DNA of 64,000 nt, from assembly GCA_016795145.1 (NCBI GenBank), contig JAEUII010000128.1:8594-72593 (forward strand), written 5' to 3'. The position numbers and the translations under genes are program-made. Positions 20,309 through 60,331 of the stretch are shown here, in pieces. This DNA is from Planctomycetaceae bacterium. Lineage in GTDB: Bacteria; Planctomycetota; Planctomycetia; Planctomycetales; Planctomycetaceae. Position 1 is the stretch's first letter. Every line of letters begins with the position of its first letter. Below the pieces are notes generated by a model, which saw only the letters and a list, made by a program, of their open reading frames with translations, was not told where the DNA came from and made no database searches.

Positions 20309-20337
20309 TCGCCGACCCGTTCCGTCGGCCCCGGGCA

Positions 20338-20790
20338 CATTTGTAACGCCGGAAAGGCAGATTGCGCCACGCGGCAGAAAAACGCCTGGTTCGCAGAGCG
20401 AACCGCGACTTAGTCGTTGTTCGCTCCGCCGAACAGAACGCCCGTCACACGGTCAACGTTTCCAGAGATCTCTCGCGAGTCAAACGCTACGCCAAAACTG
20501 AGGCGCTGTTAACTCCGCCGAACAGTCCGCATTTGTAACGCCGGAAAGGCAGATTGCGCCACGCGGTAGAAAACGCCTGGTTCGCGGAGCGAACCGCGAC
20601 TTAGTCGTTGTTCGCTCCGCCGAACAGAACGCCCGGCACACGCTCAACGTTTCCAGAGATCTCTCGCGAGTCAAACGCTACGCCAAAACTGAGGCGCTGT
20701 TAACTCCGCCGAACAGTACGCATTTGTAATGCCGGAAAGGCAGATTGCGCCACGCGGCAGAAAAACGCCTGGTTCGACGGAGCGAACCGC
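20338..20790. repeat. Tandem repeat, 191-192 bp unit, about 2.4 copies, between convergent gene ends
   Basis: catttgtaaYgccggaaaggcagattgcgccacgcgg recurs at 20338, 20530 and 20721. Each unit holds three hairpins built on gttcg-N5/6-cgaac. Partial inverted copies lie at 30408-30450 and 42514-42652. Confidence 0.9.
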
Positions 20791-20792
20791 GA

Positions 20793-21950
20793 CTATGACT
20801 TCGCCGCCGCCAAAACCGATTCACCGACGGTCCAGTTGCGACCGTTGCGGATGACTCGACGATAAAGCGTGTCGCGTTCCATGGGGACTCGGCCGGCTTC
20901 ACGAATCAGCCGGTGAAGCTGCTCGACCGTCATGCCTTCAGGAGTCTTTGCTCCGGCATCGTGATAGATCAGTTCATGGACCACGGTGCCGTCAATGTCG
21001 TCCGCACCGTAGCTCAGAGCAAGCTGAGCTGTCTGTTCGCCCAGCATGATCCAGTAGGCTTTGATGTGGTCGAAGTTGTCGAGCATCAGGCGAGCCAGCG
21101 CCATGGTGCGCAGGTCCATTAGAGCATCCGGCTTTCGGATGTCAGACAGTTCCGTATTGTCCGGATGGAAAGCCAGAGGAATGAAGGTCTGGAACCCGCC
21201 GGTTTCATCCTGAAGATCTCGCAGTCGGATCAGATGGTCAATCCGGTGCTTTGCCTTTTCGACGTGTCCATACAGCATCGTTGCGTTCGAACGCAGCCCG
21301 AGCGAATGAGCAGTCCGGTGAACATCAAACCAAACATCGCTGTCAGCTTTGTGCTCACAAATCTGACGTCGAACCTCTTCGTCAAAGATCTCGGCACCGC
21401 CGCCAGGCATGCTGCCGAGTCCTGCTTCGACCATCTGTTCCAGCACCCACTGGATCGGCTTCTTCGTGATGAACCCGAACCAGAAAATCTCAACCGGAGT
21501 CCACGCTTTGATGTGAATCTCCGGGCAGGTTTCGTGGATCACTCGAACGACATTCAGGTACCAGTCGAAACTCTTCTTATGATGCAGACCACCGACAACA
21601 TGAATCTCCGTGGCCCCGGCAGCTCGACCTTCCAGAACGCGTTCACGGATCATGTCGTCGGTGAACGTGTACGCTTTTTCGTCCTTCAAGTCGGCTCGAA
21701 ACGCGCAGAAGCGGCAGCGGTAGACACAAACGTTGGTCGGGTTCAAATGAATGTTGGTGTTGTAATACGCAACGTTGCCGTTCTTGCGTTCTCGCACCAG
21801 ATTGGCGAGGCGACCCAGAGTATGAAGTTCTGCCTTCTCATCCAGCAGTACTCCTTCATCAAAGGTCAGCCGCTCACCCGCCTGAACTTTTTCAGCGATT
21901 GCCTGAATGGCTTTGTTGTCTGTTGAAGATGTCATGGTCAAAGTATCCAC
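20793..21950 (-). CDS. Radical SAM menaquinone-biosynthesis enzyme, MqnE/MqnC family (futalosine pathway)
   Basis: It carries the NPTNVCVYRCRFCAF radical-SAM CxxxCxxC cluster, then GATEIHVVGGLH and GGFQTFIPLAFHP. The start is either GTG at 21950 or ATG at 21935. It is adjacent to a UbiA prenyltransferase. Confidence 0.75.
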   Translation of the reverse strand: MDTLTMTSSTDNKAIQAIAEKVQAGERLTFDEGVLLDEKAELHTLGRLANLVRERKNGNVAYYNTNIHLNPTNVCVYRCRFCAFRADLKDEKAYTFTDDMIRERVLEGRAAGATEIHVVGGLHHKKSFDWYLNVVRVIHETCPEIHIKAWTPVEIFWFGFITKKPIQWVLEQMVEAGLGSMPGGGAEIFDEEVRRQICEHKADSDVWFDVHRTAHSLGLRSNATMLYGHVEKAKHRIDHLIRLRDLQDETGGFQTFIPLAFHPDNTELSDIRKPDALMDLRTMALARLMLDNFDHIKAYWIMLGEQTAQLALSYGADDIDGTVVHELIYHDAGAKTPEGMTVEQLHRLIREAGRVPMERDTLYRRVIRNGRNWTVGESVLAAAKS

Positions 21951-22804
21951 AGGTCAATACATCCCAGCACCAGAATTCCGAAGCTGATGATGGCGTTGAC
22001 ATTGAAGAAGGCAATATTGACGCGAGTCAGATCGTCCGGCCGCACCAGTGAATGCTCATAGAGCAGCAGGAGACTGATCAGGATAATTCCGGCCAGAAAG
22101 ATCCAGCCAAGTCCTGCTATTTTCCAAAGCACCAGCAGCATCGCAATGGTCAGCAGATGACTGACGAACGCGATTCGCAGAGCTGAGCGGATTCCATACT
22201 TTGCCGGAATACTGTTCAGCTTCTGGCTGCGATCGAAATCCGCATCCTGGCAGGCATACAGAATGTCGAACCCGCCGACCCAGAAAAAGATGACACCCGC
22301 CAATGCTGCAGGGATCACGGAGAACTCATCACGCACGGCGATCCATGCGGCAATCGGTGACAGCATCAGCGCGGTTGAAAGCCAGTAATGACAGAAACTG
22401 GTGAATCGCTTGGACAGAGAATATCCCAGCAGGAACAATAGCACCGGCACGGACAATCGAAGAGGCCATTGCTTGGGAAAGAACAAGGTTGTCGAAGCCA
22501 CAAACACGATGCTCATCCCGACCGTGAAGATCCAGACGGCTTTGACTGACAGCAGTCCGGCGGGAATGTGACGCTTCGCCGTTCGAGGATTCCCGGCATC
22601 GATCTTCCGGTCGACGAGTCGATTGAACGCCATCGCCGCGGAACGAGCTGTCACCATGCAAACCAGAATCCCCACCAGGTCCCTCCATCGAAACAGACTG
22701 TCCGGCTGACTCCACGCAATCACCGCCGCCAGCAACGCAAAGGGCAGGGCGAAGATCGTGTGGCTGAACCGAATCAGCTCGAGAAAATGACGGACGGAGG
22801 ACAT
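21938..22804 (-). CDS. UbiA-family aromatic prenyltransferase (MqnP-like)
   Basis: 288 aa and polytopic. It has NRLVDRKIDAGNPRTAKRHIP (UbiA NxxxDxxxD motif) and a second D-rich loop, CQDADFDR. It abuts the mqn radical-SAM gene. Confidence 0.8.
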   Translation of the reverse strand: MSSVRHFLELIRFSHTIFALPFALLAAVIAWSQPDSLFRWRDLVGILVCMVTARSAAMAFNRLVDRKIDAGNPRTAKRHIPAGLLSVKAVWIFTVGMSIVFVASTTLFFPKQWPLRLSVPVLLFLLGYSLSKRFTSFCHYWLSTALMLSPIAAWIAVRDEFSVIPAALAGVIFFWVGGFDILYACQDADFDRSQKLNSIPAKYGIRSALRIAFVSHLLTIAMLLVLWKIAGLGWIFLAGIILISLLLLYEHSLVRPDDLTRVNIAFFNVNAIISFGILVLGCIDLWIL

Positions 22805-22806
22805 GC

Positions 22807-22861
22807 GTTTTTGGTTCTTGGTTGTTCGTTCTTTGTTCTTGGTTCGTTGTTATTGGTTTGG
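22807..22861. repeat. G/T-rich low-complexity element directly upstream of the UbiA start
   Basis: The element reads gtttttggttcttggttgttcgttctttgttcttggttcgttgttattggtttgg. On the coding (minus) strand it is A/C-rich (CAAAGAACGAACAACCAAGAACC) and ends 2 nt before the ATG. Confidence 0.75.
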
Positions 22862-22911
22862 AGAGTCTTCGTTTCAGTTAGCGGCACGGCGCGAGCCATG
22901 GGGTGACAAGA

Positions 22912-23113
22912 GGGCTGGGAAGCCCGAAACATCCCCTGCCGGGGCCGTGAGGCCCCGGAGTGCATTGGATCAGTTGGAAGGCCCAGCGGGCCGACACAAC
23001 ACAAACAGTTCGAACGCTGATCCCGTTGTGTCGACCCTCCGGGCCTCTCCTTTTGTTGAGCCAACTACCGGTGGCTCACGCCACCGGCAAGGGTTATTCC
23101 GACCCTCCGGGCC
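22912..23113. other. Densely structured intergenic segment (candidate leader or ncRNA)
   Basis: Five GC-rich hairpins fall within about 180 nt. They are gggct-ggga-agccc (22912-22925), ccggggcc-gtga-ggccccgg (22939-22958) and ggccc-agc-gggcc (22980-22992). The others are cgacacaac...gttgtgtcg (22992-23033) and ccggtggc-tcac-gccaccgg (23068-23087). gaccctccgggcc is repeated at 23033 and 23101. Confidence 0.3.
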
Positions 23114-23136
23114 TTAAGCACAGAAACACAGGAACA

Positions 23137-23198
23137 TTTTCGGCTTTCCGCTCTCCGCTTTCGGTTTTCCCCACCCGGCTTTCCGCTTTCGCTTCTCC
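23137..23198. repeat. Short-period ggctttccgctttcg-type repeat, downstream flank of the E1-like gene
   Basis: The element reads ttttcggctttccgctctccgctttcggttttccccacccggctttccgctttcgcttctcc. A related copy lies at 24278-24323. Confidence 0.7.
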
Positions 23199-23208
23199 AA
23201 TCCGCAAC

Positions 23209-24267
23209 TCAGGACCCGATGTAACGCGCGTAAAGGCTTCTGGCAACTGCGGGGTCGCTGGTTCCCCGGATGATGGCTCGGCCATCGGGAAAAACCGTCA
23301 TTTCGTACGGCTCTTTATCCGCAGATTCCGTCTCCGGTTTGGGAACGGTCAGCCGAATCAGGAACCCGTTTGCGACGACTTTCCCGGAGGCTCGCAGCTT
23401 TTCGGCAAGTTCGGGCAATGTCAGAGTCGGGCGTTCTGCGGGAGTCACCTGCACGGCATTTCGCCCGCAGAGAATCGACGATGCGGCTCGCTGAGTCCCA
23501 TGAAGCCAGAGCCGTTCGCCCTGATGGCAGGCGGGGCACGAAGTGGATTCGCGGAGGTTGCTCAAGTCAATATTTCGGAACGAACCGTTCCAGACATCGA
23601 CGATCAGCAGTTGACTCGTCACGCTGTCCGCATGCCCGGTCAGGATCTTGAGAGCAATTGCCGCCTGAACGGACGCGACGACTCCAATTGCCGGCCCGAG
23701 AACTCCCGCGGTGTCACACGTCTCCGTCGTTCCCGGTGGCGGTGGTGTCGTCATCAGACAGCGAAGACACGCCGTTCGTCCTGGTATCACAGGCATGACC
23801 TGACCACTGGCTCCCGTACATCCCGTAAAGATCCAGGGAATGCCAAGCGTGAGCGACACATCGTTGATAAGATAACGAATCTCAAAGTTGTCGGTCCCGT
23901 CGAGTATCAAGTCGCGATCTCGAGCAAACTCGGTGATGTTCCCAAAGTCCACGTCCGCGACGATACTCTCAATCTGAACTTCAGAGTTCACTGCCTGGAG
24001 CCGACGCTGAGCAGCCACGGCCTTTGGAAGATGATCCGCCACATCCTGTTCGGTGAAAAGAACCTGTCGCTGAAGATTGCTGAGTTCCACGAAGTCGCGA
24101 TCGACGATGCGAACGTGTCCGACTCCAGCGCGGACCATCGCATCCGCAAGCACACACCCCAGCGCGCCGCAGCCCACGAGCAGAACCTTCGACTCCGCCA
24201 GCCGCCGCTGCCCCTCCTGGCCAATCCCAGCCACCAACATCTGCTTGTGATAACGACCTGGAATCAC
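23209..24267 (-). CDS. ThiF/MoeB/HesA-family E1-like adenylyltransferase (probable molybdopterin-synthase adenylyltransferase, long form)
   Basis: It carries RYHKQMLVAGIGQEGQRRL..VLLVGCGALGC..VDRDFVELSNLQRQ (Rossmann GxGxxG). Two CxxC pairs (CLRC, CPAC) are present. A roughly 100-aa C-terminal extension lacks a rhodanese CxxGxR loop. The start is GTG. Confidence 0.8.
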   Translation of the reverse strand: MIPGRYHKQMLVAGIGQEGQRRLAESKVLLVGCGALGCVLADAMVRAGVGHVRIVDRDFVELSNLQRQVLFTEQDVADHLPKAVAAQRRLQAVNSEVQIESIVADVDFGNITEFARDRDLILDGTDNFEIRYLINDVSLTLGIPWIFTGCTGASGQVMPVIPGRTACLRCLMTTPPPPGTTETCDTAGVLGPAIGVVASVQAAIALKILTGHADSVTSQLLIVDVWNGSFRNIDLSNLRESTSCPACHQGERLWLHGTQRAASSILCGRNAVQVTPAERPTLTLPELAEKLRASGKVVANGFLIRLTVPKPETESADKEPYEMTVFPDGRAIIRGTSDPAVARSLYARYIGS

Positions 24268-55956: not shown

Positions 55957-57315
55957 CTATTGATCGAGCTGCAGACACGACAGAGTACTGCCAATTCGCA
56001 GGAACAGTGACTTACCAACAAGCGCCGGATGAGACATCACCTGGACGTTGTCGTCCGTCAGCGAAAGCCGCGACAGGATCTTTGGGGCGTCTCCTTCGGT
56101 TGAAATCAGCAGCAGCTCGCCCTCGATCGTCAGGGCCAGAAGACGGTTGGTACTGGCAATCAGACAGCCATAGCCAGTGAAGGCGTCGTCTTGCAATGCG
56201 TTGCGAGTCTTCAGATCGGCTGCGGGATCCAGTTCATACAGATCGTCCCAGATTCCATAGATTCTTCCCTGTGATTCCACGGGAGTATGAGAGTCAGGCT
56301 TCAGATCATCGTTCTGTGCATCCGGCTCCGGGTTCAGCGTTCCATCTTCGTTGAAGTGATAGATTCGAGTCCCGTTGTTCTCGGACGAAACCAGCAGCCG
56401 TTCACCCAGCACTACAGGAGTCGGCACGTTGAAGTCTCCGTGCTCCGGAGGGACAAGGGACCACAGTCTTTTTCCTGTCGCTGCGTCCCAGCCGCCCAGC
56501 GACTTTGCGTCGTAGCCGATAACTTGCTCGATCTTTCCCGTCTTCATTGAGACGAATGAAGAATATGAGGCATCGATGCCCGGTGTTGTCCAGACGTCTT
56601 CGCCTGTCTCAGGATCCAGTGCGACCAGCGACGCCTTCTTTCCGCCAGGCTGCACGATCAGGTGACCGCCGGCCATCAAAGGAGATCCGGAGTGTCCCCA
56701 GATCATATGGGGCGACTGAAAGTCCGCGGCCAGATTTCGTTGCCACAGAACGATTCCGGATTCCAGTTCCAGACAGCACAAATGACCGAACGCCCCAAGC
56801 GTGTAAACGCAGTCTTCGTGAATCAGCGGCGTTGCTCGCGGTGAGTTTCCGTAATCCAGCTTTCCCGAGACCGGGTACAGGTGCTGCCAGACCAGCGTGC
56901 CATCTTTTGCGTCGAAGCACTGAAACACGTCATGGCGGTCCAGTGCATCGCGACTACCCGTCACGACGAAACCCTTCCCCGCTGCGATGCCGCCAAGTCC
57001 GTCACCGCTCAGTTCGGCACTCCATGCGTATTCCGGAGACTTAGGAAGGCTGTCCGGCAACCAGGCAACTTTGCCGTCTCGCGATGCTCCCCGCCATCCC
57101 GTCCACTCGGCGGCCGAGTCACTCGTCTTATCATCGGGCACCAATGAACACAGGGCATACGTCCCTGAAGAAGAACGATGCCCTGTGAGATTTGAACTTG
57201 TGAGATTTGAAATCGCAGCGACGCGAACAGCGAAGGCGAGTTTCTCAGCCCTCGTCAGTCCTTTTTTTTTGAGCTGACTGAAGCAGCTGGCGCGGCAGGA
57301 GCCTCTTCCTTCCAC
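55957..57315 (-). CDS. PQQ-like (BamB-type) beta-propeller repeat protein; start undefined
   Basis: It has AEWTGWRGASRDG and repeated blades (DGTLVWQ, GIVLWQ, GEDVWT, GKRLWS). The ORF opens with GTG at 57315, overlaps the upstream gene by 61 nt, and shows no ATG or signal peptide before the propeller. Confidence 0.75.
   Translation of the reverse strand: MEGRGSCRASCFSQLKKKGLTRAEKLAFAVRVAAISNLTSSNLTGHRSSSGTYALCSLVPDDKTSDSAAEWTGWRGASRDGKVAWLPDSLPKSPEYAWSAELSGDGLGGIAAGKGFVVTGSRDALDRHDVFQCFDAKDGTLVWQHLYPVSGKLDYGNSPRATPLIHEDCVYTLGAFGHLCCLELESGIVLWQRNLAADFQSPHMIWGHSGSPLMAGGHLIVQPGGKKASLVALDPETGEDVWTTPGIDASYSSFVSMKTGKIEQVIGYDAKSLGGWDAATGKRLWSLVPPEHGDFNVPTPVVLGERLLVSSENNGTRIYHFNEDGTLNPEPDAQNDDLKPDSHTPVESQGRIYGIWDDLYELDPAADLKTRNALQDDAFTGYGCLIASTNRLLALTIEGELLLISTEGDAPKILSRLSLTDDNVQVMSHPALVGKSLFLRIGSTLSCLQLDQ
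57231..57270 (-). promoter_or_regulatory. Candidate slippage or -1 frameshift site (A9G tract plus downstream hairpin)
   Basis: The minus strand reads TCA AAA AAA AAG GAC TGA in the frame of the binding-protein gene, so A_AAA_AAG lies in the zero frame. The -1 frame is the PQQ-propeller ORF. Six nt downstream a 7-bp stem forms (CGAGGGC / GCCUUCG, one G-U pair) with a 10-nt loop. Confidence 0.3.
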
Positions 57316-58154
57316 GGAACGAAGCCAGATGCGGTCTCCATGTCGATCAGCATCTGAGCATCCAGGCCCACTTCCTCCAGCGCGGCGGACAGTGCCTTCT
57401 GATCTGCTGCAGGCATTTCAGACTTTACGAACAGAGTGATGAATGGGACTGGCTTGCTTTCTCCGATGACGCGAAGATCGCCCTTCGCCACTTTGCCACA
57501 GCCTTCAAGCAGAGGGCCGGCATAGCTGGAAATGATCGCAGCGGCCTTCGCATCCTTCGGCAATTCCATCAGCATGACCGCAGCATTACTGCACGACGGA
57601 GCAGTCTCGATGGTTGAAGGCAGGGCGACACCTTTTTCCTTCATGAATGCCATCGGGGCTGCTGACTTTTCGTCACAGTCTTCAGGACCAAAGAAGATGC
57701 GGTATCCCTTCAGGTCTTCAACGGTCTTTGCCGGATCGTTTGCTCGCACGACGAACAAACCCGTCTGAACGACTTTGTCCTTTAGGTCGGTTAAGCGTGC
57801 CAGAGGAATCACGCTCAGCTTTGAGTCTTTTGCGTCGGACAATACGACAGAGTGTTTTCCGACGATGATGTCGACCTTACCCTCAGACTTCTCCATCGCT
57901 GATTCGAGCGTCTCGCCCCAAACAACGTTCACCTTCCGAGAAAGGTGCTTCGTCAGAAACTCACCCAGTTTTTCGTACTTTCTTTGTGCATACCCTTTGA
58001 CACAGTCACACGCCAAAGGACCTGCAAGAGGATCCATGACCACCAGAGTCAGTTCCGGTGATTTGTCTTCAAACGCCGATACCGTGGCACCTGAAGCCAA
58101 TAGGACGAGTGCCGAGAAGAGGCTGAACAATCGGAACATCATAGTTTCACCCAT
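57255..58154 (-). CDS. PhnD/SsuA-like periplasmic substrate-binding protein
   Basis: The signal peptide is MFRLFSLFSALVLLASGATVSA. The body is type-2 SBP-like (TLVVMDPLAGPLACDCVKGYAQRKY..., GLFVVRANDP, YRIFFGPEDC). The tail is P/A/K-rich (EEAPAAPAASVSSKKKD). Alternative ATGs lie at 58142 and 58139. Confidence 0.6.
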   Translation of the reverse strand: MGETMMFRLFSLFSALVLLASGATVSAFEDKSPELTLVVMDPLAGPLACDCVKGYAQRKYEKLGEFLTKHLSRKVNVVWGETLESAMEKSEGKVDIIVGKHSVVLSDAKDSKLSVIPLARLTDLKDKVVQTGLFVVRANDPAKTVEDLKGYRIFFGPEDCDEKSAAPMAFMKEKGVALPSTIETAPSCSNAAVMLMELPKDAKAAAIISSYAGPLLEGCGKVAKGDLRVIGESKPVPFITLFVKSEMPAADQKALSAALEEVGLDAQMLIDMETASGFVPWKEEAPAAPAASVSSKKKD

Positions 58155-58288: not shown

Positions 58289-60061
58289 CTACTTCTGTTC
58301 AGCCGCTGGTTCAGCCTTCGCCTCTGGCGCCGCTGGTTCTTCCTTCTTTTCTTCTGCGGCAAGTTCGTCCTTCACTCGCTTGTAGCGATTGCTGGACAGA
58401 ACACTTTCGTTGAACATCAGAGTGATGGTCGCCTCGTCATCGTTCACGAATTCGATCTTGTAGTCGTAATACTGAATCTGATCCTGAAGCTGTGAAACGA
58501 TCAGTGTGTTGCCGTCCTGAGAGACTGCTTCCCAGCCATTGTCGCCACCTTCAAACATTCCACCAGACATCGACAGTTTGCCGTCTTCGTGGAAGTGAAG
58601 ATATGACGATCCATACGGATCATCGCTGACTGCCGCTTCACCACCGTCGCCACCGAGCAATCCGCCGATCAGAGCACCCAGGCCGGATGCTGCAGGCTTT
58701 GCGTCTGCCTTGCGCTTACCGTTCAGGGACCATTCACCGACCAGCTTCTTTCCAAGGCCTTCGCGAGCTGCCTTGGCCAGAACTTCTTCCGGAGTTGTCT
58801 CTGGTGCTTCCGCGTTTGGAACAAGAACGCAGATGTGAGACTTGTCGACATTCATCATGTAATAGCGATTGCGCTGTTCATCGAAGCCCAGTGCGACGTG
58901 CTTACATCCGCCGCCGATTTTGGCCTTACCAACCACTCCCAGCAGTTTACCTTTGTCGTTGAATCGCTTGATGGTGCCGATGCTGGACTCCGCTGTCAGA
59001 ATATCACCATTGTTGCAGCAGCGGACATTCATCGGATTGCAGCAGCTTCCGAATCCATCCACTGCCTTACGATCACCCTTGCCGAAGTCGAACACTCGAT
59101 TGCCATCACGGTCCAGCAGGCCAACCTTGAACTTAGTATTCTCTGCAAGAATCAAATGTTCTTCGTTGGCCTGAATGTCGCACTGTCCACAGCAACCACC
59201 AAGTTCTGCAACGACTTTCTTTGGCTCTGAAAACTCATGGTTCATGCGCCAGACTTCGTAGCCATAACCTTCGATCGCGTTGCAGCAGACGAAAATGTCT
59301 TTGGACGTCACGGCCAGCGCGGTGATTCCGAGCTTGGAATCCAGCATCTGATCACCTGCGAACATGTCCTTGTACATGGATTCCTGCGACTTCAGTTGCT
59401 CTTCATAAAGAGCCTTCTGCTCTTCATAGGTCTCCAGTCTCTTTCGGTCCTTGTCTGTGATCTCCGCTTCAGGCTTTTCCTTCAGCTTCGCGATGCGTTC
59501 GTCAATTCGTTTGATCTGATCACGAAACTGCTGAGTAAACTCTTCGACCTGCTTGCGGGCACCGGCTTCAACACGCTCCTTGAACGTTGCCATGTCGCCA
59601 ATATGCGGTGAATCAGCGGTCGACAGCACTTTGCCATCGCTGCTGACCTTGGCAACCTTGCCGTGACCAGCCACAAAGATGGTGCCGTCGCTGGTGAGGT
59701 TGATTGCCGTCGGAGCAAACGTCAGCTCGATCTCTTTCTTCAGTTCTCCGTCCGGCGAATAGACCTGGATCAGTTTTGGAGCCGGAATGGTCTTTATCTG
59801 CTGCGTCCCGTCGGCGTTCATTACGGCTTCAACGTTGTCGCCACCCACACACGCCAGGATATTGCCATCCTTGTCCAGACAGTACGTATGGAGAGCAATC
59901 GGCTTGCCGTCGTGCAGAGGCTTGATGATCCGAGCCTGCTTGTGAGTACTTGTGAATTCCCCCTTTGGCGTGTCGCCTTCACCAGCGACGACAGAATTCA
60001 GGGAGAAAACTCCCAGCATCAGTGCCAGGGCAGTCCCCAGACAGAAAGCTCGAAGACGCAT
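58289..60061 (-). CDS. Hypothetical secreted propeller-like protein with an inserted coiled coil and vicinal Cys pairs
   Basis: The ATG at 60061 gives MRLRAFCLGTALALMLGVFSLNSVVA. Blades are NHL/propeller-like (DGNILAC, DGTIFVAGHG, DGKVLS, DGNRVFDF, NGDILTA). The coiled coil runs KERVEAGARKQVEEF...YEEQLKSQ. Four CC pairs are present, and the tail is P/A/E/K-rich. Confidence 0.65.
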   Translation of the reverse strand: MRLRAFCLGTALALMLGVFSLNSVVAGEGDTPKGEFTSTHKQARIIKPLHDGKPIALHTYCLDKDGNILACVGGDNVEAVMNADGTQQIKTIPAPKLIQVYSPDGELKKEIELTFAPTAINLTSDGTIFVAGHGKVAKVSSDGKVLSTADSPHIGDMATFKERVEAGARKQVEEFTQQFRDQIKRIDERIAKLKEKPEAEITDKDRKRLETYEEQKALYEEQLKSQESMYKDMFAGDQMLDSKLGITALAVTSKDIFVCCNAIEGYGYEVWRMNHEFSEPKKVVAELGGCCGQCDIQANEEHLILAENTKFKVGLLDRDGNRVFDFGKGDRKAVDGFGSCCNPMNVRCCNNGDILTAESSIGTIKRFNDKGKLLGVVGKAKIGGGCKHVALGFDEQRNRYYMMNVDKSHICVLVPNAEAPETTPEEVLAKAAREGLGKKLVGEWSLNGKRKADAKPAASGLGALIGGLLGGDGGEAAVSDDPYGSSYLHFHEDGKLSMSGGMFEGGDNGWEAVSQDGNTLIVSQLQDQIQYYDYKIEFVNDDEATITLMFNESVLSSNRYKRVKDELAAEEKKEEPAAPEAKAEPAAEQK

Positions 60062-60331
60062 ACGCAGTCCTTTCTCAGGTCGAACACAAAACGGAAGCAC
60101 AGGAACGCCGAAGCAATGCTGTTGCCGATGGACGGGACGGGCCAACATCGGACTTCGGGAAAGTTGAAGCCGACAATTGGCAGGCAGCCAGAATTGGGGC
60201 AGATGGGATGTGGCCATCTTACCCCTCGGGAGTCCGCTCAAAAAGGGGACCCGAAAAAAATCTCTCCGACTGCCCCAACCAGAATGGTTCAGGAGCACTT
60301 CGGTTCGCAGCTTTGTCTGATTTCTCAGCGA

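Follow-up and report, generated by a model that had tools for sequence, protein, structure and literature searches.

A conserved A9 run between a binding-protein gene and a start-less propeller frame is most likely a programmed slippage site in Planctomycetaceae

How is a reading frame translated when it has no evident start codon of its own? The question is raised by a pair of genes in a 64,000-nucleotide (nt) stretch of DNA from a Planctomycetaceae bacterium (contig JAEUII010000128.1), which we refer to as the window and whose positions serve as coordinates throughout. Both are encoded on the minus strand; a binding-protein gene ends at a run of nine adenines (A9), and a beta-propeller frame that lacks an ATG continues from the same run in the -1 frame. 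Comparison of this junction across genomes suggested that the A9 run is most likely a genuine site of programmed slippage rather than a sequencing error. That the site specifies programmed recoding of one kind or other we regard as highly probable; as to the kind, our judgement tilts slightly towards transcriptional slippage by RNA polymerase, which would convert A9 in the DNA to A10 in the messenger RNA (mRNA).

To define the junction, the sequence at the end of the binding-protein gene was read again in both frames. In the standard frame, the binding-protein coding sequence (57255-58154) was identified from the open reading frame (ORF) list and a match to Pfam Phosphonate-bd; it specifies 299 amino acids (aa) with the C-terminus ...SSKKKD, and its 3' end reads AGC TCA AAA AAA AAG GAC TGA. 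The A9 run, our proposed slip site, occupies 57262-57270 (T9 on the plus strand) and provides two in-frame heptamers, A_AAA_AAG at 57261-57267 and A_AAA_AAA at 57264-57270, with the TGA stop of the standard frame (57255-57257) one codon past the former. No stop interrupts the -1 frame across the run, and this frame extends for 434 codons to a stop at 55957-55959. It comprises a linker (57106-57261, GLTRAEK...DSA), which varies in length and sequence among orthologues, followed by a predicted eight-bladed BamB/PQQ-like beta-propeller (55957-57105; Pfam PQQ_2). The first conserved propeller motif, AEWTGWRG, lies at 57082-57105, 52 codons past the run; no ATG was found in the propeller frame between the run and this motif, and an in-frame TTG-GTG pair 12-13 codons ahead of the motif is not followed by a signal peptide. 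These results bear out the preliminary description of the locus, which had reported the sequence of the gene end, the A_AAA_AAG heptamer, and a propeller ORF open in the -1 frame with neither an ATG nor a signal peptide ahead of AEWTGWRG. A Sec-type signal peptide at the start of the binding protein (MGETMMFRLFSLFSALVLLASGATVSA, 58074-58154), judged from the composition of the translation rather than by a predictor, would be the sole export signal open to either a short or a fused product. Within the linker we also noted a 15-nt tandem duplication (57184-57211, reading TTCAAATCTCACA, AG, TTCAAATCTCACA and encoding SNLT-S-SNLT); this is in keeping with a disordered linker that evolves freely, and not with a regulatory repeat. 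Runs of A9 or T9 are not unusual in this genome, with 10 observed and 13 expected. This count matches random expectation, and the case for the site must therefore be made from the conservation of the run.

To examine conservation, homologous junctions were gathered with both proteins as queries at the level of the genus, the family (398 genomes) and the phylum (401 genomes), and 116 junctions could be scored. Of these 116, 89 showed the split layout, in which the propeller occupies the -1 frame; they are distributed over 33 genera, of which one belongs to a different family. The run at these split loci was A9 in 72 and A8 in 14, with single occurrences of A10, A7 and A6; among loci from the genus of the window, 17 of 18 carried A9. 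When all run-bearing loci were considered (about 100), 89 were in the -1 state, about seven were in frame and two were in the +1 state, so that the -1 direction accounts for 89 of 91 split loci. The standard-frame stop followed the run at a median of 1 nt and a maximum of 16 nt (87 loci), and an in-frame A_AAA_AAN heptamer was present at every split locus. The split state was also found in genomes assembled as a single contig (G309, G522, G527, G476, G627, G636 and G752). Within Gimesia, four species carry A9 and are split, and five carry A10 or A8 and are in frame. Two further loci were treated as poor assembly or decay and not counted as evidence, namely L140 (several frameshifts in genome G478) and L079 (a stop in the linker in genome G761). 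What goes beyond chance is that 89 homologous loci have all kept a run at this junction.

The codons around the run point to selection on the nucleotides themselves. The codon preceding AAA AAA AAN ends in A at approximately 80% of loci and is variously GCA, TCA, GTA, ACA, TTA, GGA or CCA, although codons of the form NNA make up 17% of all codons in the genome of the window, GTA 5% of valine codons and TTA 1.3% of leucine codons. AAA is itself the minor lysine codon in this genome (33% of lysine codons). Because an A-ending codon is kept ahead of the run despite its rarity, the run is selected as nucleotides and not as Lys-Lys-Lys, and is maintained at the nucleotide level beyond the needs of the protein.

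We also assessed whether the propeller frame is translated, and in what form. Ten pairwise comparisons of the propeller gave ratios of nonsynonymous to synonymous substitution rates (dN/dS) of 0.035-0.14, at synonymous divergences (dS) of 0.6 to above 1. This degree of purifying selection indicates that the propeller is translated. At 60 of the 89 split loci, no ATG, GTG or TTG occurs in the propeller frame before the W..WRG motif, and the linker at split loci is 12 codons long at the median and never shorter than 4. At many loci the propeller frame is closed by a stop either 3-6 nt ahead of the run or within its first bases, and must therefore be entered inside the run. The selection on the propeller, together with the natural in-frame fusions described below, indicates that both reading frames encode functional protein.

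The fused product itself has natural counterparts. A database search with the predicted 732-aa product as query returned hundreds of single-ORF homologues of 660-790 aa that contain both Phosphonate-bd and PQQ_2, cover 95-99% of the query and share 43-54% identity with it; these include Schlesneria paludicola and Gimesia algae (names as given in the source records). They resemble the predicted product in having the same two domains in the same order and the same conserved upstream neighbour, and they differ from the split loci in that they lack the slip site or, in Gimesia algae, carry an in-frame A10, and presumably make the fusion only. In-frame loci without any run were found in other families and also within Planctomycetaceae. 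In the complete genome G646, which is sister to A9 carriers, the tract is the 10-nt AAAAATAAAA, which locks the fusion in frame and is read as QVKIKLVNSAWPQWRG. An AlphaFold model of one natural fusion (mean predicted local distance difference test score 88.8) displayed two well-folded domains with a disordered linker between them (residues 277-296); in the split genes the run lies at this position. Taken together, these data show that elsewhere the protein normally exists in fused form. The preliminary description had offered, as one option, a -1 event that fuses the binding protein to the propeller; the product it proposed is strongly supported by the conserved site, the natural in-frame fusions and the purifying selection on the propeller, and the mechanism, for which ribosomal frameshifting alone had been considered, now leans to slippage by RNA polymerase.

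In the model that we favour, decoding in the standard frame would terminate one codon past the run and produce the 299-aa binding protein, which is secreted. In some transcripts RNA polymerase would realign on the nine A:T pairs and add one untemplated A, and the resulting A10 mRNA would place the propeller frame in phase, such that ordinary translation would produce a fusion of approximately 732 aa with the order signal peptide, binding domain, disordered lysine-rich linker and eight-bladed propeller. One gene pair would in this way give two isoforms, both periplasmic or secreted, and the run would determine their ratio. Here we infer the occurrence of slippage, its transcriptional level, the ratio of the products and the role of either product.

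The ribosome could also make the same two products, by programmed -1 frameshifting at A_AAA_AAG or at the A_AAA_AAA that precedes it by one codon; the neighbouring stop may assist. A heptamer of the X_XXY_YYZ type is in frame at all 89 split loci, A_AAA_AAG is the heptamer used by E. coli dnaX (PMC3711429), and at most loci the 0-frame stop falls 0-1 codon past the heptamer; the near-uniform -1 direction also agrees with this explanation, as do the shortest runs, A6 and A7 (loci L067 and L071), which still retain A_AAA_AAC. However, sites of the E. coli dnaX and IS911/IS3 type, which the junction resembles in its in-frame A_AAA_AAG and -1 direction (and, for IS3 transposases, in the fusion of an upstream to a downstream ORF), depend on an upstream Shine-Dalgarno-like element and a downstream hairpin or pseudoknot, and neither is conserved here. 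The 50 nt downstream of the run showed no excess structure across 87 loci (mean z -0.24, compared with -0.25 and -0.31 for controls), and GGAG, GAGG or AGGA occurred within 20 nt upstream in 10 of 87 loci only. The window does contain the 7-bp stem with one G-U pair noted in the preliminary description (57231-57254, with 57248-57254 pairing with 57231-57237), which begins 6 nt past the heptamer. Its fold is unremarkable, with an energy of -16.2 kcal/mol and a z of -1.14, and 26 of 200 shuffled sequences form folds that are no less stable; it is not conserved in orthologues. Given the lack of conserved structure, we no longer treat the hairpin as a functional element, and it is probably not a stimulator.

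The transfer RNA (tRNA) complement, the length of the run and the frames of two exceptional loci bear on the same choice. ARAGORN identified one tRNA-Lys(CUU) and two tRNA-Lys(UUU) in the genome of the window, whereas E. coli has a single tRNA-Lys. The presence of tRNA-Lys(CUU) has been tied to the use of slippage rather than frameshifting in Thermus (Atkins et al., PMC5009743); by the same reasoning AAG would here be decoded by a tightly pairing tRNA, and the sole, weakly pairing tRNA-Lys(UUU) that makes A_AAA_AAG highly shifty in E. coli does not describe this genome. Bacterial RNA polymerase slips efficiently on runs of length 9, and selection against runs of this length is visible in many genomes (PMC1088944, PMC5009743); the preferred length of the run is thus, by analogy, the length of efficient slippage, favouring RNA polymerase. 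Selection on two A's beyond the heptamer also counts against the ribosome, and sliding of the ribosome in E. coli requires about A11 (PMC4363877). At loci L016 (A8) and L068 (A10), a +1 change is needed to join the frames; a -1 ribosomal shift cannot supply it, and only mRNA of heterogeneous length could. We therefore consider ribosomal frameshifting rather unlikely as the source of the fusion. The register of the run and the base that follows it were tried as a means of discriminating the two mechanisms and rejected, as any A9 holds an in-frame A_AAA_AAA and its register is inherited by descent. The +1-frame stops, which are unusually close to the run in Thermus dnaX, occurred at a median of 20 nt after the run and were not clearly off expectation. 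The junction peptide, ...SSKKKGLTR..., would be identical under either mechanism.

Several observations weigh against transcriptional slippage as the explanation. The argument for it is drawn entirely from genomic sequence, and the in-frame A_AAA_AAN heptamer leaves the ribosomal route open at every split locus. The A6 and A7 runs are short for polymerase slippage, A9 also yields a perfect A_AAA_AAA heptamer for tRNA-Lys(UUU), and the two loci in the +1 state could be assembly errors. Homologues without a run presumably make the fusion only, and the benefit of producing two isoforms is then without explanation. An exact-flank pattern search of genome and metagenome contigs found no second assembly of the species. 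A look-up of the exact binding-protein sequence gave no matching record.

The remaining explanations, which take up the other options of the preliminary description, place the cause outside recoding, and the comparison contradicts each of them. Phase variation would make the run a hypermutable DNA tract in which replication slippage switches cells from A9, with the binding protein alone, to A10, with the fusion, and back; assemblies would then record the majority state. DNA polymerase does indeed slip on poly-A tracts, the length of the run has shifted over evolutionary time (A8, A9, A10 and A11), and both the split and in-frame states occur within Gimesia. Contingency loci, however, are mixed among strains, whereas 89 of about 100 run-bearing loci share one state here; A9 in 17 of the 18 loci of the genus shows that the state is not freely variable among close relatives, the propeller is under strong purifying selection in genomes that would be 'off', and the same layout is fixed in an essential gene, dnaX (see below). 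We consider phase variation very improbable. A sequencing artefact (a one-base miscount of the homopolymer), or decay through a recent frameshift that killed the fusion, might be suspected from the fragmented, metagenome-type assembly of the genome (473 contigs) and from the clear assembly problems in some relatives, such as L140. Against this, an identical state recurs in about 89 independent assemblies, among them complete and single-contig genomes, the stop just past the run is conserved, and the propeller dN/dS is that of a strongly constrained gene rather than a pseudogene, which leaves artefact or decay with scarcely any probability. Two separate genes, with the propeller starting at a non-canonical or internal codon or by reinitiation after the stop, would be consistent with the TTG-GTG pair in the window and with the upstream GTG start that gene callers assign to homologues (P0001, 449 aa). 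This proposal meets the 60 split loci without any possible start and the linkers of as few as 4 codons. Its product would lack a signal peptide, for which most loci have no room, yet all fused homologues export the propeller behind the binding domain. In place of orthologues with separate genes, a clear propeller start and no slippery run, the comparison revealed run-bearing split loci (89 of 116), and we attach next to no likelihood to independent initiation.

Two known systems offer precedents for transcriptional slippage of the kind proposed here. In Thermus thermophilus, transcriptional slippage at an A9 run lets dnaX specify both tau and gamma (Larsen et al. 2000, as cited in PMC1088944 and PMC5009743). 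The junction in the window shares with it a sense-strand A9, independence of RNA stimulators, a genome with two tRNA-Lys species, two products per locus and stops right after the run. It differs in that standard reading of Thermus dnaX gives the long product and slippage the short one, whereas here slippage would be needed for the long one, and in that the product is a secreted two-domain protein rather than a replication factor, with slippage predicted from sequence. In Shigella flexneri mxiE, a single untemplated nucleotide added at a T9/U run links two overlapping ORFs (PMC1088944, PMC5009743). As proposed here, a +1-nt slip at a 9-nt homopolymer joins an upstream ORF to a start-less ORF to give a longer protein, and the gene is cellular and not part of a mobile element. 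Unlike mxiE, a plasmid-borne regulator of one genus, the site described here is chromosomal and conserved over 33 genera, and its short product is a complete folded domain by itself.

What the two domains do was approached through profile and structure searches. The binding protein matched Pfam PF12974 (Phosphonate-bd) with an E-value of 4.7e-21 (75.7 bits, cut-off 27) and scored far below the cut-offs of the curated PhnD models (24 bits against 261 for NCBIfam PhnD; 40.6 against 112 for TIGR01098); the domain therefore appears to share the PhnD fold class without being a PhnD orthologue. The propeller matched PQQ_2 with an E-value of 1.2e-20 and reached 44.5 bits against a cut-off of 285 for the BamB equivalog TIGR03300, and a Foldseek comparison of a homologue's model with BamB gave a target template modelling score of about 0.73. 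These results, in part from a predicted structure, suggest a propeller that is BamB-like in fold and not a BamB orthologue. A sequence search of the PDB returned no solved structure for the binding domain. Alignment of natural fusions revealed invariant cysteines in this domain, including a CxC motif (MDPL..PL.C.C..GYAQR.Y; at about 57995-58030 in the window protein) and two further cysteines. PhnD-type proteins do not usually show such a pattern, which suggests metal binding, redox activity or disulfide bonds; the function of the product is uncertain. Upstream lies a Cys-rich, propeller-like gene (58292-60061, minus strand; listed by the ORF finder as 58289-60298), which adjoins the binding-protein/propeller gene in at least 40 loci by tblastn, both split and in frame and in other families too. 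The two genes probably work together.

We also searched for similar sites elsewhere in the lineage. The dnaX gene of the same genome (contig C448, about 19.7-21.8 kb, plus strand) contains an in-frame A10 (C448:20941-20950), with stops 3 nt past the run in the -1 frame and 8 nt past it in the +1 frame. Across the family, A9 or A10 was found at the same place in dnaX in 28 of 30 genera (A9 in 19 and A10 in 9; loci L143-L172), with a -1-frame stop nearby. The dnaX run of the family has the Thermus-type tau/gamma layout, a further likeness between this family and Thermus.

A second gene pair, on contig C351 (about 20332-24137, minus strand; T9 at C351:21573-21581), has a comparable arrangement. 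Its first ORF encodes 859 aa with a Pfam VWA_3 domain and a glycine-rich tail and ends ...NLKKKPGQ, 9 nt past the A9; its second ORF, of about 400 aa in the -1 frame, has no Pfam match. Among loci of this vWA pair from different genera (L173-L202), A9 was present at the junction in 26 of 29, with one A8 and one A10. The first ORF ends ...KKK, with the stop 1-18 nt past the run in most, and in many the second frame is closed up to the run. From these features the vWA pair is an A9 recoding candidate unrelated to dnaX. On contig C342, a 4.7-kb ORF on the minus strand stops 3 nt after an A8 at about 20460 (...AAC AAAAAAAA GAG TAG), and a frame of at least 500 nt goes on in the +1 frame; this A8 run may be another slip site, or chance.

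Deeply conserved recoding in ordinary chromosomal genes of bacteria is rare, with prfB, dnaX and a handful more as examples, and most cases come from mobile elements and phages. The literature that we searched contained no description of the binding-protein/propeller slip site. The GeneTack survey covered two Planctomycetes genomes only and did not mention these families (PMC3711429), and a 2016 review of recoding did not mention Planctomycetes (PMC5009743). At present the locus is annotated as two genes, with spurious propeller starts, or as a pseudogene, and planctomycete proteomes are accordingly mis-described at this point. Cultivable Gimesia species with the split or the in-frame form would permit a direct test of transcriptional versus ribosomal slippage outside the usual model organisms.

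The binding-protein/propeller locus thus presents a secreted two-domain protein with a probable slip site kept over 33 genera, and the same device may operate in two other gene families of the lineage. The wider proposition, that Planctomycetaceae use A9-type slippage as a general, lineage-wide means of making two isoforms in at least three unrelated families, each fixed over tens of genera, falls a little short of probable in our estimation. Under this proposition, run length would tune the ratio of isoforms, with A8, A9 and A10 as alternatives alongside versions locked in frame. If it is true, Planctomycetaceae would be a natural system in which transcriptional recoding is routine for non-mobile genes.

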